Made by a program: the position numbers and the translations under genes. The notes under the pieces are model-generated. The model had not been told where the DNA came from, did not search any database, and saw nothing but the letters and a program-made list of their open reading frames with translations. A DNA stretch of 64,000 nucleotides, taken from the NCBI GenBank assembly GCA_038896535.1, contig JAWACY010000001.1:1-64000 (forward strand). The letters run 5' to 3'. Of this stretch, positions 10,836 through 64,000 are shown piece by piece. The stretch comes from Candidatus Anstonellales archaeon (lineage in GTDB: Archaea; Micrarchaeota; Micrarchaeia; Anstonellales; J096). Numbering within the stretch: the first letter of the stretch is position 1; the number at the start of each line of letters is the position of its first letter.

Positions 10836-12323
<1,488 letters not shown>

Positions 12324-12340
12324 AAAAATTTTGTGCAAGG

Positions 12341-31667: not shown

Positions 31668-31922
31668 TAAGAGTCCACAATAAAAAAGCGTCTGGAAGAT
31701 AATAAGAAGGCCTGTGTATACGGGTTCGCGCCTTCTTACTTCTTATAGGTGACTATAAGGGGCTGGAAGATTATAAGAAGGCCACAATAAAAGGGTTAGC
31801 GCCTTCTTAGAGGGAACAAAAAGGGGCTGGAAGATAATAAGAAGGCCTGTATATAAGGGTTCGCGCCTTCTTATGGAAGATTATAAGAAGGCCCACATAA
31901 AAGGGTTAGCGCCTTCTTATAA
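31668..31922. repeat. tRNA-3'-adjacent palindromic repeat array 1 (four 36-bp units plus a degenerate remnant)
   Basis: TAAGAAGGC-N18-GCCTTCTTA at 31703, 31774, 31838 and 31884; remnant at about 31668-31692. Confidence 0.95.
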
Positions 31923-32008
31923 TGCAGGGGGTGGGATTTGAACCCACGAACCCACTAAGGGACTAGCCCCTCAAGCTAGCGCCTTTGACCAGACTTGGCG
32001 ACCCCTGC
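31923..32008 (-). tRNA. tRNA-Leu(GAG)
   Basis: Anticodon arm CTAGC-TTGAGGG-GCTAG; long variable arm. Confidence 0.95.
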
Positions 32009-32091: not shown

Positions 32092-33099
32092 CTAATAAAA
32101 CATCAAAAATGCATTGTCATCATTTGAGAGTTTCCTTATATTCTCAACTGTAGGCTTAAATCCTGCTTCCAATGGGCAGGTTGATATAGAAAATGATGTA
32201 TTTATATTATATTCATAAATCCTCAAATCATAGACTTTAATGAGTTTTTGATTTGCCCTTTTACCATTCATTAATTGCATGTTGCTTCCTAATCTTTCAG
32301 CCTCATTTCCTATATGCAACGGCATTTTCCCACTATAAACAAACATGTCTCCTGCAATAAATAATGTGGAACATGCTGGTTTTTTTATACCAATTGCAAC
32401 ACATGCATGGTTTGGAAATATTTTTTCGCTTTGTTTTTCAATAAAATGCATTATATGATTTTTCTCTGGTTCTTGTTTGAATGTATTTGCAAAATCATTT
32501 ATTATGGAATCTGCAATAAGTGTCTTCCCATATCCTTTTGCAATAGCGAATATTAAGGAGCCATGTTTTTTCAATTCTCTCATAAATACTGATACATTTG
32601 CCCCTTGCTTTGTTTTTCTTTTTTTCTTAATTCCATATGCGATAAATCCTAAAAAATCATCTGAAATCTTATCATATGTTTTAATATTTTTCCCGTATAT
32701 AACAAAATCCTGTATCTCCAATGGCACAATGCCAGAAAGTTTAAACAAATACGGTTGAACTTTAAGCCTGAACTCCTGCCTTAAAAAATGTGATTGCTGA
32801 GAATTCCAAACATTATTAACTTGTAGTGATGCTATTTTCATTAGTAGGCTTGTTTCAAATGTTTTTGGATGAGATGAAAAGCTTCTTGCAGCCAAAAGAA
32901 TATTCTCCCTATTGATTTGTGACATAGGATTAAGGCCATTCATTAATGCAGTCATAACACACATATGAAAATCAGATAAAATGCTGGAAAAATAAACCTC
33001 TTCCTTGTCTTCTAAAACTGGCTTTTGATCCTTAAATAAATTCTCCTGTTTTTCATAATAATAGATACTGCTGTTAAACTTTGATTTTTGGGGGGACAT
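32092..33099 (-). CDS. Hypothetical protein
   Basis: 335-aa ORF with upstream TTTATAAA box; no motif recognised. Confidence 0.65.
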   Translation of the reverse strand: MSPQKSKFNSSIYYYEKQENLFKDQKPVLEDKEEVYFSSILSDFHMCVMTALMNGLNPMSQINRENILLAARSFSSHPKTFETSLLMKIASLQVNNVWNSQQSHFLRQEFRLKVQPYLFKLSGIVPLEIQDFVIYGKNIKTYDKISDDFLGFIAYGIKKKRKTKQGANVSVFMRELKKHGSLIFAIAKGYGKTLIADSIINDFANTFKQEPEKNHIMHFIEKQSEKIFPNHACVAIGIKKPACSTLFIAGDMFVYSGKMPLHIGNEAERLGSNMQLMNGKRANQKLIKVYDLRIYEYNINTSFSISTCPLEAGFKPTVENIRKLSNDDNAFLMFY

Positions 33100-33149: not shown

Positions 33150-33934
33150 ATGTCTTCTACAGATATTAAAGAAATCATACAAAATAGCTTATTTACTCTC
33201 CTTTATCTTATTTAGTTATTTCAATTATCATTAATATAAGAAATTTCAATGATGCTGTAAAATTAACGAACACTGGTTTTGTATTATATACATTTTCTTG
33301 TTTCATTTCAAGTTATTACGCTTATATTTATAGAAAGACAATGAACGCACTTGATAAACATGCATATTTGTTTTTCAGCATAGGCCTTTTTCTTGTATTC
33401 ATGGCACATGCATTATGGGCTTATTACATTATAATAGGGACAAATCCATCAGGGGTTTCTTATGCTGATTTCTTTTGGCTTGCATCTTATACATTTTTCT
33501 TTACTGGGGCAATAAAACTCATAAGCGCGTATAGTGTAAAGATAAACCAAACAAACATGATTACTATATTATTTATTTTACTTGCTATTTATATTGCTTA
33601 TTCAATTTTAAACAATTTTAGTTTAGGTGACTTTGTAAATGCCATTTATCCTTTATTAAACACTTACTTATTATTCTTGACTTTTAATATCATTTCAACA
33701 TTTAAAAAAATAAATATATTGACAACGCCTTACTTATATTTAAGCGCTGGCCTTGTTTTATTCTCAATGGCATCATTAATACAAGCGCTCCTATTTTTAG
33801 CAAGAAAAGATATTTTACATGGTTATGAAGCAGGCATTGCAAACACAATGTTTGGTATTGGCTATTTAATAACAATGTTTGCGTTTATGAAAATACAAAA
33901 CACTTCAATAAGTATGGGAAAAACAAGAAAGTAA
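33150..33934 (+). CDS. Multi-TM membrane protein, paralog of 33976-34806, with an apparent frameshift near 33200
   Basis: ATG at 33150 stops after 21 codons; the frame of ORF 33341 is open from 33188 and encodes two further TM helices; shares ADxFWL and YP motifs with the next gene. Confidence 0.65.
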
Positions 33935-41824: not shown

Positions 41825-41979
41825 TCTTTTTTAGTCTTTTTATTCATCTAAAAGAAGATTGTGTTCAGCTGTGCTTTAATTCTCTATGCAGTAATAAGAT
41901 AAACAAGAGATAAACAAGAATAAGATTAAAGGGCATATATAAAAATGTAGCACCCCCCAAAACCTAATAATACAAGATG

Positions 41980-42234
41980 AAGATTATAAGAAGGCCTGTG
42001 TATAAGGGTGCGCACCTTCTTACTTCTTATAGGTTATAACATGGGGCTGGAAGATAATAAGAAGGCCTGTGTATAAGGGTGCGCACCTTCTTACTTCTTA
42101 TAGGTTATAACATGGGGCTGGAAGATAATAAGAAGGCCTGTGTATAAGGGTTAGCGCCTTCTACTTCTTATAGGGTATAATAAGGGTTTGGATGATAATA
42201 AGAAGGCCTGTGTAGAAGGGTGAGCGCCTTCTTA
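41980..42234. repeat. tRNA-3'-adjacent palindromic repeat array 2 (four units, period 71/71/70)
   Basis: Units start at 41987, 42058, 42129 and 42199; 35-nt linkers CTTCTTATAGG...GGGGCTGGAAGATAA. Confidence 0.95.
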
Positions 42235-42309
42235 TGGGCCAGGAGGGATTTGAACCCTCGACCTGCTGGTCCGAAGCCAGCCGCTCTGTCCAAGCTGAGC
42301 TACAGGCCC
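42235..42309 (-). tRNA. tRNA-Arg(TCG)
   Basis: Anticodon arm GCTGG-CTTCGGA-CCAGC; full cloverleaf. Confidence 0.95.
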
Positions 42310-42352: not shown

Positions 42353-42688
42353 ATGAGGGCTCCTTGTTTTAAAGAATGTCCAGAATTAAGCAAAGCATTA
42401 AAACCGCTAAATATAGATTATTATGCTGTTTCATTTATATTAAGAAATTCCACTAAATTATATAACAAGTTTTCACACATAACAGAAAATGAAATGAAAA
42501 AACTTATATTGTATTATGCAAGAAATGGTAAATTACTTGTTATACTTAATGCCATTATATACAATGAACCCAATATCAATTTCTCTAATTTCAAAGAAGT
42601 TGCAGAGAAGAAAGGCCAATTAAAGTTTCCATTTAAAGTCTTTGAACCATTTGAAGAAGAAAAAATGGATAGATTTTTAAATACTTAA
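42353..42688 (+). CDS. Hypothetical protein
   Basis: 111-aa ORF with upstream TATA-like box. Confidence 0.55.
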   Translation: MRAPCFKECPELSKALKPLNIDYYAVSFILRNSTKLYNKFSHITENEMKKLILYYARNGKLLVILNAIIYNEPNINFSNFKEVAEKKGQLKFPFKVFEPFEEEKMDRFLNT

Positions 42689-42713: not shown

Positions 42714-42986
42714 ATGGCAAAATACCTTTTGGCAAAACAGATAACAGGAAGAATGGTAATAACCAACGAGGGAGAAGAATTTGGTAGAGTAGTGGACTTA
42801 AATGTAAATGAACTTACTGGGGATATAGAAGATCTCATAATAGATCCAAATCCTGATAACACGAGCCTCGAGCAGTTAAGGACAGAAGATGATTATGTAT
42901 TGATCCCATTTAACAGTGTGCTAGCTGTTGGAGATTATTTAATAGTAGACAAGAGGCGTCTTTTTGAAAGTAGCAGGAATAGATGA
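42714..42986 (+). CDS. PRC-barrel domain protein (possibly CdpB-like cell-division factor)
   Basis: VITNEGEEFGRVVDL, TGDIEDL, IPFNSVLAVGDYLIV. Confidence 0.88.
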   Translation: MAKYLLAKQITGRMVITNEGEEFGRVVDLNVNELTGDIEDLIIDPNPDNTSLEQLRTEDDYVLIPFNSVLAVGDYLIVDKRRLFESSRNR

Positions 42987-43575
42987 AGCTGGAAGAGGCT
43001 CTTTAATAGGGCCTATTGTTATTGCAATATTTATTACCAGTTCCCCAGAGAAGCTTGGGACATTAAAAGATTCAAAGAAGTTAACAAAAAGACAACGAGC
43101 ATTCTTATACAAAAAATTAAAGCATATGGGCGAGTTCGAAGTAATAAAAATATGGCCCACACAGATAGATGAGAGAAATATAAATTTACTTGAACTGGAA
43201 AGTATAAAGGCATTATTAAAAAAACACAAACCAGACAAAGTTTATATAGATGCATTTACAAAAGACAAAAACATTTTTTCATATCCTGGGGTAGATGTTA
43301 TAGCAGAGCATAAAGCAGACGAAAAGTATAGTGTTGTTGCTGCTGCCAGCATTATAGCAAAAGTGATAAGAGATGCTGAAATAAACAAGTTGAAAAGACA
43401 GGTTGGTGATTTTGGTTCCGGTTATCCTTCAGATCAAAAAACAATAGCATTTGTTGAAAAAAACATGGATAAACTTGAAAAAGAAAAAATAATAAGAAAG
43501 AAATGGGAGACATATAAAAGAATAAAGGAACCCAAACAAAAAAAGATAAACTTTGACGAAGTTGATAATAGTTAA
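42964..43575 (+). CDS. rnhB: Ribonuclease HII
   Basis: GIDEAGRG, DSKKL, HKAD, AAASIIAKV, GSGYPSD. Confidence 0.95.
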   Translation: MKVAGIDEAGRGSLIGPIVIAIFITSSPEKLGTLKDSKKLTKRQRAFLYKKLKHMGEFEVIKIWPTQIDERNINLLELESIKALLKKHKPDKVYIDAFTKDKNIFSYPGVDVIAEHKADEKYSVVAAASIIAKVIRDAEINKLKRQVGDFGSGYPSDQKTIAFVEKNMDKLEKEKIIRKKWETYKRIKEPKQKKINFDEVDNS

Positions 43576-44123
43576 TACAATTTTATTACAGCAATTTTTT
43601 CGTATTCTGGGCCCTCTCTTTTTAATACACTTTTAAATACAACGATCTCGCTTGCAGTAAAATGCCCAAAATCATGCGTTTTATATCTATTGACTTCTTC
43701 AAAAAACATCTTATCTGGTTTACATTTTATTCTTGCTATTGTTGCATGGCCCTTATCTGTTATGCTCCCAAATCTTACTTTTTCGCGCATTGCATTTATT
43801 ATGCCTTCTATTCCATATATGCCTGCCCATAAGACTCTTGCATAATCTAATGATGGAAAAAATCCAAGGCCCTTTACATATACGTCAGTCTTTTTTATTC
43901 CAATTTCATCTATTGTTTTTGTTATTTTCATTAAATTACTATAATCAACATTGCCGAGAAAATTTAGTGTTATGTGAACATTCTTTTTATCAACAATTTT
44001 TATACATCTAAAATCCCTTATCTTGTTTTGTATTAAAAGAAGCTCCTTTTTTATGTCTTCTGGTATTTCTATAGCGATAAAGGCCCTTATCTTACTATTA
44101 TTTAATTGTCTTTCCTCTTGCAT
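43572..44123 (-). CDS. thpR: RNA 2',3'-cyclic phosphodiesterase (2H family)
   Basis: RAFIAI, HITL.FLG, RVLWAG, HATIAR, GPEY. Confidence 0.92.
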   Translation of the reverse strand: MQEERQLNNSKIRAFIAIEIPEDIKKELLLIQNKIRDFRCIKIVDKKNVHITLNFLGNVDYSNLMKITKTIDEIGIKKTDVYVKGLGFFPSLDYARVLWAGIYGIEGIINAMREKVRFGSITDKGHATIARIKCKPDKMFFEEVNRYKTHDFGHFTASEIVVFKSVLKREGPEYEKIAVIKLY

Positions 44124-62253: not shown

Positions 62254-63423
62254 TTATATTACAAAACGCATTATTCTTATTACTGGTTTATTGCTGTCAG
62301 GCATTTTATTAAAACCAAGCAATTTTGCATGTGTTTCTGATACATGATATTTGCAAGCCCCCTCTTCTTTAAATACCACCTTTGTTTCAGTTATTTTATT
62401 AAAGTGTTCATCATATATAAAACCAATGGGCAGTAGGCTGTGACCATATTTAATAAATGCATTCAAACTTGGGCTTTTTGTTATTCTCATGATCTTCTCA
62501 GCTTTGCTCTTATCTATAATGATTGGACTTGCAATGTAAATTTTCCCATTGACATTAAAGATTGAATACATCGAAATGCCGTGTTTTTTTAATATATTTT
62601 TTATTCTCTGTAGCTTCGTTCCTTGTTGCATTATCAGAATGTGTTTCCCTTTACCAGCTATTTGTGAAGACAATGCATGAACAAAATACGTGCCAGAAGG
62701 AAGGCCAGCGCTTCCTTCTTGGCCTGTTTTTCTCGGCATGTTGCGAAGCAACGTCATTGCTATGCTGCTCTTTGCTGGCAATTTCATTTTCGGAATATAT
62801 TTTAATAAATCTTTTGCTTTAATTTCTAGCTCGTATGGTCTTAAAGGAACGCACATATAACCGCTTTTAAAATTATAAGTAAATGGTAATCTAACAATCC
62901 TTCTTGTATCAATAAAAACGCCTTTATCAATATTGAAACGTTCAAATTCTTTGTAAAGTTCTTTTCTGTTATTTAAAACAGCCTCTTCCCTTTTTCTCGG
63001 ATTTTGTTCTTTAAATTCTTGCTCATCTAAACAGCTTATATGGAACCCTTTTGAACCAGAGAATGCTATATAATTTATTTTATAATCGTGCTGTATTAAA
63101 TAGTCATAAAGTTGTAATGCCCTTTCTCTTGCTATATCAATATTTTCAATTAAACTACCTTTACTTACATCAATATCAAAAAATATATCAGATTTAAGAA
63201 AAACTGTATCATACTCTTTTTCTTTTTCCCTCTTTCCCAGTAATTTTGGGTTTAACCAATAAGAAATAGAATAATAGCTATCGTATGCTTTATTCTCTTT
63301 CAAGAATTCTAACAATGATTTGTAATGAAAAAATTTCTTTGTTGCTTTCTTGAACAGCCCAAATTTATTTACAAACCTGATATGCCTAAACTTTAATAAT
63401 GGTATTATTTCAGCAAAAAAGGG
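62254..63423 (-). CDS. Archaeo-eukaryotic primase (PriS-like) catalytic protein with C-terminal extension; 5' end uncertain or frameshifted
   Basis: YYS, FDID, FSGSKGFH, D..RIVRLP motifs; frame is open upstream of the TTG at 63315 to 63423 with no ATG. Confidence 0.8.
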   Translation of the reverse strand, partial: PFFAEIIPLLKFRHIRFVNKFGLFKKATKKFFHYKSLLEFLKENKAYDSYYSISYWLNPKLLGKREKEKEYDTVFLKSDIFFDIDVSKGSLIENIDIARERALQLYDYLIQHDYKINYIAFSGSKGFHISCLDEQEFKEQNPRKREEAVLNNRKELYKEFERFNIDKGVFIDTRRIVRLPFTYNFKSGYMCVPLRPYELEIKAKDLLKYIPKMKLPAKSSIAMTLLRNMPRKTGQEGSAGLPSGTYFVHALSSQIAGKGKHILIMQQGTKLQRIKNILKKHGISMYSIFNVNGKIYIASPIIIDKSKAEKIMRITKSPSLNAFIKYGHSLLPIGFIYDEHFNKITETKVVFKEEGACKYHVSETHAKLLGFNKMPDSNKPVIRIMRFVI

Positions 63424-63704
63424 CTATCCCTATATGCCCTCTTCTTTATGTAATTCCTCAATGCTTTTGCCATTCTCTTGTCTTTTTTACTTAACTGCCT
63501 TACCAATTTATCAAATTGACTCTTTAATTCATCTTCGTCAGATGTTGGTTTTATTTTGGATGAAAGCCAACTTTCAAGTCTATGATAAGTTGGCGTTAAT
63601 CTTCTTGCCTTCTTTATTCCTTGTGGTTTTGCTTGTTGTTTCTCTTCTTTGCCAAAAAGAATACTTTTAAGCCAATCTAAAAATGCCATAAATAATAATC
63701 TCAT
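63405..63704 (-). CDS. Short ORF, possibly the N-terminal part of the primase-like protein
   Basis: Its stop lies just after a CCCTTTTTT run where the primase frame opens. Confidence 0.55.
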   Translation of the reverse strand: MRLLFMAFLDWLKSILFGKEEKQQAKPQGIKKARRLTPTYHRLESWLSSKIKPTSDEDELKSQFDKLVRQLSKKDKRMAKALRNYIKKRAYRDSPFLLK

Positions 63705-63949: not shown

Positions 63950-64000
63950 CCTTCTTATATAAGAAGGCCCGTGTAATAGGGTTAGCGCCTTCTTACTTCT
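63950..64000. repeat. Third locus of the 36-bp palindromic repeat, cut by the window end
   Basis: TAAGAAGGC-CCGTGTAATAGGGTTAGC-GCCTTCTTA at 63960-63995, followed by the linker start CTTCT. Confidence 0.92.

Follow-up and report, generated by a model that had tools for sequence, protein, structure and literature searches.

We analyzed a stretch of 64,000 nucleotides (nt) from Candidatus Anstonellales archaeon (assembly GCA_038896535.1, contig JAWACY010000001.1, positions 1 to 64,000), referred to here as the window, for tandem arrays of a hairpin repeat, termed R1, that stand directly behind tRNA genes. The window is archaeal by content, with an archaeal small-subunit (SSU) rRNA gene and eight tRNA genes, one of them intron-bearing (Rfam, ARAGORN). 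The array considered first follows the tRNA-Arg(tcg) gene, which occupies 42235..42309 on the minus strand (Rfam RF00005, 67.1 bits; also found by ARAGORN) and whose discriminator base, 42235, abuts the first repeat unit. Four units in the sense of the tRNA make up this array (41987..42234, minus strand), as identified by pattern search, in the sequence itself and with the covariance model R1. Their hairpins lie at 42199-42234, 42129-42164, 42058-42093 and 41987-42022, the C-rich tails are 35 nt each, except for 34 nt after the first hairpin, and the model matches fall at 42168-42240, 42098-42170, 42027-42099 and 41958-42028. Unit starts at 41987, 42058, 42129 and 42199 (pattern search) correspond to spacings of 71, 71 and 70 nt, and unit 3 (42129) has one T missing from its right arm. 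These positions, the missing T and the contact of the last unit, which ends at 42234, with the tRNA-Arg discriminator had been described in an earlier note on this DNA and were confirmed by pattern search, sequence and Rfam. The 35-nt linkers that it reported are likewise seen as spacing, but these stretches are repeated sequence and form part of the unit; those of units 41987 and 42058 are identical. The last tail (41950..41986, minus strand) is degenerate in sequence; the DNA beyond it is T-rich and has a T5 run 41 nt beyond the end of the array (T-run table). In run X2, one contig was one 71-nt unit short; the affected units are identical, this may be an assembly collapse, and the difference was not used as evidence.

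A second array of four units (31703..31919, minus strand; pattern search, sequence and R1 matches) is in the sense of the tRNA-Leu(gag) gene at 31923..32008 (minus strand; ARAGORN; Rfam, 53.4 bits), and its first unit lies 3 nt from that gene, which agrees with the four-unit array beside tRNA-Leu described earlier. Its hairpins, at 31884-31919, 31838-31873, 31774-31809 and 31703-31738, are separated by tails of 10, 28 and 35 nt. The last tail (31673..31702, minus strand) lies upstream of tRNA-Ser(tga) and contains a T6 run that is likely an archaeal terminator. A further copy, reported at 63960, is indeed present (63960..63995, minus strand), but it is not a lone copy beside tRNA-Asp: the genome search shows it to be the fifth, distal unit of a five-unit array that reaches past the window to tRNA-Arg(cct) (genome position C1:64261-64335). 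Altogether the window holds nine matches to the hairpin pattern (two 8-nt arms with 20 nt between them) where 0.03 are expected, and none of 100 shuffles reached nine. An invariant 18-nt inner spacing with the loop sequence GGGT(T/G)(A/C)GC had been claimed, and this holds for all nine copies in the window, whereas genome-wide the spacing is 17 or 18 nt and three loop types occur.

The assembly of this genome, G000, comprises 751,790 bases in 5 contigs, with about 32% G+C and an estimated completeness of 91%. Searching it for the arm pattern with at most one mismatch gave 65 matches, while the reversed control pattern gave none. Once inner parts of 19 or 20 nt were allowed, 69 hairpins in 17 arrays were found, all of them intergenic. 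The real number of arrays is probably 16, because contig C2 ends and contig C4 begins inside an array; the end of C2 (240145-240444) and the start of C4 (1-92) fall in identical 66-nt units, and the two contigs probably join there. The repeat unit, consisting of the hairpin and its C-rich tail, measures 71 nt in the window; outside it, the usual lengths are 66 and 48 nt. Among the 67 units scored, loop types A, B and C were found 41, 18 and 8 times, respectively. Internal tails range from 10 to 35 nt, most commonly 30 nt (23 cases) and then 12 nt (9 cases), and each array, with one to eight units, is a mosaic of the three loop types and several tail types in which all units share one orientation. 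Twelve units that share a distinct tail start form a subfamily found solely in the three arrays at C1:31-64 kb, while the main type (50 units) is found solely elsewhere. An array is thus more like its chromosomal neighbors than like arrays that follow the same kind of tRNA. Copies directly behind tRNAs are preceded by TAG, TGG, TTA or nothing; considering all copies, RG precedes 49 of 67.

The placement of the arrays is far from random, as the earlier note had supposed for tRNA 3' ends. Of 16 arrays, 12 begin 0-5 nt past the discriminator base of one of the 43 tRNA genes that ARAGORN finds in G000, on the same strand, and one more begins 85 nt past tRNA-Leu(taa). An array placed by chance would combine a distance of at most 5 nt from a tRNA end with the matching strand at a probability of 1.7e-4, which gives P(≥11/16) of about 1.7e-38. 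All 13 tRNA-linked arrays are in the sense of the tRNA. The three arrays without a tRNA lie behind a co-directional gene, between divergent genes, and antisense to both neighbors. Carrier genes are concentrated in a few isoacceptor groups, namely Leu (5/5), Ile (2/2), Arg (3/4), Thr (2/3) and Lys (1/2), with none among the other 27 tRNA genes. This pattern suggests that the 3' halves of related tRNAs, which are nearly identical, guided the spread. In the spacer between tRNA-Leu(taa) and its array (C1:207430-207513), an inverted and then a direct copy of the T-loop form a small palindrome of tRNA sequence. The idea that the arrays insulate convergent genes was discarded, as a convergent downstream neighbor follows 7 of 12 arrayed tRNAs and 13 of 30 others, which is no enrichment.

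Folding of the hairpin gives energies of -9 to -11.2 kcal/mol (z-scores from -1.7 to -6.1), and stem positions 1-9 are Watson-Crick paired in 60-69 of the 69 copies. G-U pairs are not in excess on the tRNA-sense strand of the 69 copies. The fold of the complementary strand is slightly more stable (mean of -12.7 compared with -11.3 kcal/mol; more stable in 38 of 49 distinct variants), although it should be noted that the copies share ancestry and are not independent. The added stability of this strand comes from extra G-U pairs beside the core stem, and the complement of the identical units 41987 and 42058 is an almost fully paired 15-base-pair (bp) hairpin. With respect to transcription signals, runs of at least four T on the tRNA-sense strand are missing from 11 of the 17 arrays in a genome that is 68% A+T, while such a run lies no more than 12 nt past the end of about 12 of the 30 tRNAs without an array. 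Transcription therefore likely reads through from the tRNA into the array. Rfam scans at E≤10 over both window arrays returned only tRNAs and noise, with no small nucleolar RNA (snoRNA) above noise and no rtT RNA, so that the check for a match to a described RNA family, which the earlier note had called for, yielded none.

Beyond this genome, the exact arms proved to be restricted. No copies were found in three genomes of the same genus, single matches at chance level were found in 4 of 40 relatives, and the 69 matches of a metagenome scan were all isolated, unrelated palindromes that formed no arrays and lacked the loop signature. In viral contigs, the tail motif gave one match without a hairpin and the loop motif none, so that no contig carried the element. 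A different picture emerged in G006, a genome of another genus in the same family. Here, a hairpin with a G-rich stem of 7-8 bp, a loop of 18-20 nt and a C-rich tail stands 2-6 nt past the tRNA discriminator, and its loop and tail motifs match those of the G000 units. When 19 G000 and 12 G006 units were aligned, the same columns paired although 5 of 9 stem pairs differ on both sides; pairing was kept in 88.5% of cells, as compared with 78.1 ± 1.2% after shuffling (0 of 500 shuffles equaled it) and 35-66% with slid partners. Judged by this alignment, the G006 element is a true homologue of the G000 element. On comparison of the sequences, the exact R1 arms are species-specific, but a homologue with other arms occurs in other genera, so the conservation of arms and spacing in relatives that the earlier note had made a condition is only half borne out.

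The covariance model R1 found 65 copies in G000, 49 in G006, 12 in G010, 9 in G013 and 3 in G011, and none in the remaining 14 of the 19 family genomes, including G001-G003. It found none in 132 genomes from 11 other families of the order at E≤1e-5 with stricter filters, a result that should be read as a lower bound. In G010 and G013, R1 stands behind Ala, Val, Leu-like and one further tRNA. In G011 the stem takes a third form, the loop is G000-like, and no tRNA adjoins the element at the two loci seen. G031, from another family, has single R1-like units behind 2 of 29 tRNAs, identified by eye and missed by the model, and no arrays were found behind the 31 tRNAs of G009.

In G006 the element is found inside tRNA genes as well. 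At four tRNA loci (L181, L226, L218 and L178) the T-loop is split by inserts of 51-169 nt, and removing these inserts in silico restores full-length tRNAs (ARAGORN), with 136 nt removed for Thr cgt, 138 nt for Gly ccc, 169 nt for Leu gag and 51 nt for Ala tgc. The R1 model has matches inside the Thr cgt and Gly ccc inserts, and the Leu gag insert contains the R1 tail motif. By eye, the inserts form an end-to-end helix. Within the T-loop inserts R1 is antisense, the element is found in both orientations in this genome, and several copies adjoin a T-loop half in antisense. Some units end in an inverted and a direct copy of the T-arm and the acceptor strand, followed by the next hairpin. Rfam finds only 22 tRNAs in G006, which is 93% complete, and many of its tRNA genes are therefore probably hidden by T-loop inserts. 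As a practical matter, it should be considered that such repeats mislead tRNA finders in the relatives, and that the arrays break assemblies. A second mobile-looking element of about 85 nt, with inverted ends and an apparent 4-nt duplication, is nested in G006 R1 units just past the 3' arm, at loci L174, L178 and L179 (and L217, L218).

The position behind the tRNA is also occupied by repeats that are unrelated to R1. In G001, a genome of the same genus with about 54% protein identity, another hairpin family stands behind 5 of 43 tRNAs (Ala 3/3, Pro 2/2; loci L015, L019, L025, L035 and L117), and a family related to it stands behind 9 of 44 tRNAs in G002 (Ala 3/3, Val 3/3, Pro 2/2, Ile 1/2; loci L126, L128, L130, L132, L137, L139, L143, L151 and L157). 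This family is characterized by short loops, co-varying stems and an ATC motif after each hairpin, and the G002 arrays hold additional modules with TATA-like stretches. The homologue with a changed stem in another genus, the copies in T-loop inserts and these unrelated hairpins at the same tRNA-tail position are new relative to the earlier note.

Our preferred reading, to which we assign a probability of about one half, is that R1 is a lineage-restricted, non-autonomous palindromic repeat that persists in those segments of pre-tRNAs that are processed away, and that spreads by recombination or by some strand-specific route. It behaves like a non-coding element of the kind of the repetitive extragenic palindromes (REP) and bacterial interspersed mosaic elements (BIME), or of the miniature inverted-repeat transposable elements (MITE), restricted to one family of DPANN archaea. 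The reading builds on direct observations, namely the placement and orientation of the arrays, the isoacceptor pattern, the homology across genera with compensatory change in the stem, and the copies in T-loop inserts. That the arms are uniform within a genome and turned over between genomes, with a patchy distribution among relatives, suggests such an element; so do the mosaic, neighborhood-specific arrays, the variable number of units and the differing sets of occupied tRNAs between species. The unrelated hairpin families at the same tRNA-tail position and the presence of R1 in T-loop inserts point in the same direction. Among the options raised by the earlier note, a REP/BIME-like non-autonomous element at tRNA ends fits best, on account of the uniform copies, the patchy distribution, the mosaic arrays and the neighborhood subfamilies, and it is further backed by the two orientations and the tRNA-intron copies in a relative.

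According to this reading, the niche of R1 would be whichever portion of a tRNA gene processing removes from the precursor. In G000 this would be the 3' trailer, starting from the RNase Z site (within 5 nt of the discriminator), and in G006 the niche would also take in T-loop intervening sequences. As no oligo-T terminator lies in between, the array is most likely transcribed together with the tRNA and then removed by RNase Z at 3' end maturation. Because the array would be removed during this maturation, insertion at the trailer presumably costs the cell little and may be close to neutral. Unequal recombination between units, or slippage, would lengthen, shorten and reshuffle the arrays, and spread to new tRNA genes could proceed by recombination, aided by the near-identical 3' halves of isoacceptors, or by a strand-specific insertion activity. 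The element itself codes for nothing.

R1 works like REP and BIME sequences in several respects. Both involve an imperfect palindrome of about 36 nt with many extragenic copies, mosaic clusters built from a few hairpin and linker types, a location just behind transcription units, and uniformity within a genome with divergence between species. REPs carry a conserved GTAG (or CGTC) tag at one end, the GTAG head being described in PMC3733652, and GT(A/G)G (GTGG or GTAG) precedes 22 of 67 R1 copies. R1 differs in that its host is archaeal, its units are direct rather than alternating, its loop of 17-18 nt has conserved motifs, and it is placed base-exactly behind tRNAs. It differs also in that neither G000 nor 18 relatives yielded a REP-associated tyrosine transposase (RAYT) or other Y1 enzyme, apart from one fragment in a relative. 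Two of these differences, the missing RAYT and the uniform orientation within arrays, concern features that define REP/BIME sequences. If the reading holds, REP/BIME-like repeats exist in an ultra-small archaeal genome without their bacterial mobilizing enzyme, and the DNA behind the tRNA discriminator and in the T-loop serves as refuge or landing pad for small repeats in genomes that have next to no intergenic DNA to spare. One family shared by trailers and introns would then be a candidate donor for intron gain.

Several results weigh against this reading and need to be considered. No pair of an empty and a filled site was seen, and movement is therefore not demonstrated; the Sua5 gene next to the tRNA-Arg array has no neighboring tRNA in five relatives, hence these offered no orthologous empty site for comparison. 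The base-exact junction and the sense orientation of 13 of 13 arrays in G000 go beyond mere tolerance, and the conserved loop and tail motifs would also fit a functional RNA or cis-element; these motifs are kept between genera and apparently also in another family (two units in G031). For the recombination route, the similarity of G000 tails to tRNA 3' ends is weak: the best variants reach P of about 0.02, other variants 0.08-0.2, and the whole-tail score is 9.7 compared with 7.6 ± 1.3. Mobilizing enzymes, which the earlier note had proposed to look for in the form of a recombinase or HUH nuclease partner, did not turn up. The Y1 transposase (PF01797) has no match in the 91%-complete G000, and its sole match in the 19 family genomes is a 31-position sub-domain fragment in G008, a genome not examined for arrays; the control search for this family found a match in 6 of 14 known genomes. 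TnpB (PF07282) has no match in G000. Tyrosine recombinase (PF00589) was found in none of the 19 family genomes (G000-G018), as compared with 14 of 14 reference genomes in the control. A recombinase of the Xer type, too, seems to be absent or to have diverged too far. Reverse transcriptase (PF00078) is present in 3 of the 19 genomes (G005, G008 and G012), none of which is known to carry arrays. An all-against-all comparison of the 728 open reading frames (ORFs) of G000 gave 87 pairs, the best with 74% identity over 110 residues, and no near-identical multicopy gene. Completeness of the assemblies is 77-94%. The absence of PF01797 and PF07282 from G000 also speaks against the IS200/IS605-derived palindromic elements (PATE), which have TnpA (Y1, PF01797) and/or TnpB (PF07282) as partner.

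The strongest alternative, which is a real possibility if an unlikely one, is that R1 is a functional tRNA-trailer RNA or cis-element made within the pre-tRNA. It might protect the 3' end from exonucleases, set RNase Z cutting or read-through, or, once released, give rise to stable small RNAs of unit length with a protein or another RNA as binding partner. The anatomy of the arrays is compatible with an RNase Z-released trailer RNA, as the earlier note had offered among its options, because most arrays contain no oligo-T terminator, despite the 68% A+T of the genome. The arrays start at the RNase Z site and are in sense in all 13 tRNA-linked cases, pairing is kept through a full replacement of the stem sequence, and the loop and tail motifs are common to genera. 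There is a precedent in Nanoarchaeum, where, according to PMC3491384, a structured small RNA gene lies immediately downstream of a tRNA and RNase Z is proposed to separate the two. R1 differs from that RNA in having no C/D boxes (the C box is found in 0 of 67 units on either strand), no snoRNA match in Rfam, and tandem arrays in place of a single gene. A function at the trailer is, moreover, hard to reconcile with the finding that only 13 of 43 tRNAs carry arrays, with a carrier set that differs between species, and with mosaic arrays of anything from one to eight units. Nor does it account for the three arrays without a tRNA, one of which is antisense to both neighbors, or for the two orientations in G006. 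Also against it, the sense strand shows no G-U excess, its complement is slightly more stable in 38 of 49 variants, and neither an Rfam match nor C/D boxes were found.

A more far-reaching form of the preferred reading, which we regard as doubtful, is that R1 is a mobile element of DPANN archaea that is specific to tRNA genes and whose movement involves no classical transposase, integrase or reverse transcriptase, and that it is the donor of the non-canonical T-loop introns of Micrarchaeota. Movement might occur by hairpin-templated strand switching at tRNA genes, or by way of the tRNA end-processing and ligation machinery. If this were true, the trailer arrays of G000 and the T-loop inserts of G006 would be two landing sites of one element, and a route by which introns arrive could be tested. 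How archaeal tRNA introns arrive is stated as an open question in a 2026 preprint (10.64898/2026.10.13.758758). Archaea have families of related tRNA introns at different positions, as in the 'intron transposition' of Thermoproteales. For Micrarchaeum ARMAN-2, PMC3239211 describes T-loop introns at positions 53/54 and 59/60 together with a broad-specificity splicing endonuclease. R1 is similar to these introns in that one family is found in different tRNA genes, in that the G006 T-loop inserts resemble those of ARMAN-2, and in that the sequence would be removed by tRNA processing. It differs in that all copies in G000 lie outside the tRNA, as 3' trailer arrays, and the cited passages of PMC3239211 make no mention of trailer arrays formed by an intron-related repeat.

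It is improbable that the units arose, and go on multiplying, by tandem duplication that included the 3' part of the tRNA, in which case every tail would be a decayed tRNA 3' end and the linkage to tRNAs would reflect origin and not targeting. The model for such an origin is the E. coli tyrT locus, where tandem repeats of about 178 bp (rtT RNA) lie directly behind the tRNA gene and are transcribed with it. R1 units are likewise tandem and directly behind tRNAs, in G006 the ends of some units are clear copies of a tRNA 3' part, the spacer behind the G000 tRNA-Leu(taa) holds the inverted and direct T-loop copy described above, and the best G000 tail variants resemble the tail of tRNA-Leu (P of about 0.02). 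However, most tail variants are not significant (P of 0.08-0.2), and the whole-tail score (9.7 as opposed to 7.6 ± 1.3) leaves the likeness in G000 weak. R1 units are also much shorter (48-71 nt) and stand behind 13 different tRNA genes, so that one unit family is found behind tRNAs of five amino-acid families with different tails. In addition, no Rfam match, rtT included, was obtained in the array stretches, and an origin by tail duplication leaves the tRNA-less arrays and the T-loop insert copies unexplained.

The least supported of the options raised before, and in our estimation a very improbable one, is that the arrays are duplex sites for a dimeric DNA-binding protein with the 9-bp arms as half-sites, acting, for example, as chromosome organizer, as replication or transcription barrier, or as recombination site. 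Arms that are nearly invariant in the genome while loops vary would indeed suit a sequence-specific reader, and species-specific arms could be co-evolving with such a protein. Yet both arms change together with pairing kept (5 of 9 pairs), and since it is base-pairing and not arm sequence that is kept across genera, this argues for a single-strand hairpin rather than duplex half-sites. The half-site centers would be separated by about 27 bp, a distance that does not match full turns of the helix, the arms do not include the conserved loop and tail motifs, and no candidate protein was found, with tyrosine recombinase in 0 of 19 genomes.

Other known systems can be dismissed briefly. The geometry in the window, a partly palindromic 36-nt repeat every 71 nt, resembles that of CRISPR arrays, which were ruled out because the 'spacers' are repeated (identical at 41987 and 42058), no cas gene is adjacent, there is no leader and the arrays stand behind tRNAs. 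An archaeal C/D box small RNA was ruled out by the C box count of 0 in 67 units on either strand. With respect to type III toxin-antitoxin systems (ToxI-like), the downstream neighbors are housekeeping or convergent genes, and no ToxN-directed search was made. A loop that imitates the T-arm on the complementary strand, a TATA-like promoter in the loop, and H/ACA, K-turn, ribozyme, retron and integron attC readings were dropped as short by-eye resemblances without a supporting test. A literature search for tRNA-linked palindromic or tandem repeats in archaea, or in Micrarchaeota in particular, covering listings and the passages cited here, found no description of an R1-type element.

The genes that flank the arrays in the window are housekeeping genes according to Pfam, namely Sua5/YrdC, PIN-ATPase, PRC barrel, RNase HII, LigT-like and S-layer. 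No cas, integrase or transposase gene is among them, in agreement with the earlier statement that none is adjacent; for Cas families this refers to the ten flanking ORFs of the window, and the whole genome was not scanned for cas. ORFs that adjoin arrays and have no Pfam family at E≤0.001 lie at 42353-42685, 32095-33099, 33341-33931 and 63350-63667. A LigT-like 2'-5' RNA ligase/phosphoesterase gene (43575-44123, minus strand) and an RNase HII gene (42964-43572) lie less than 2 kb from the tRNA-Arg array, which is probably a coincidence. The 16S rRNA gene stands alone at 10836-12324, and because Rfam finds no 23S or 5S rRNA gene in the 64-kb window, the rRNA genes appear to be unlinked.

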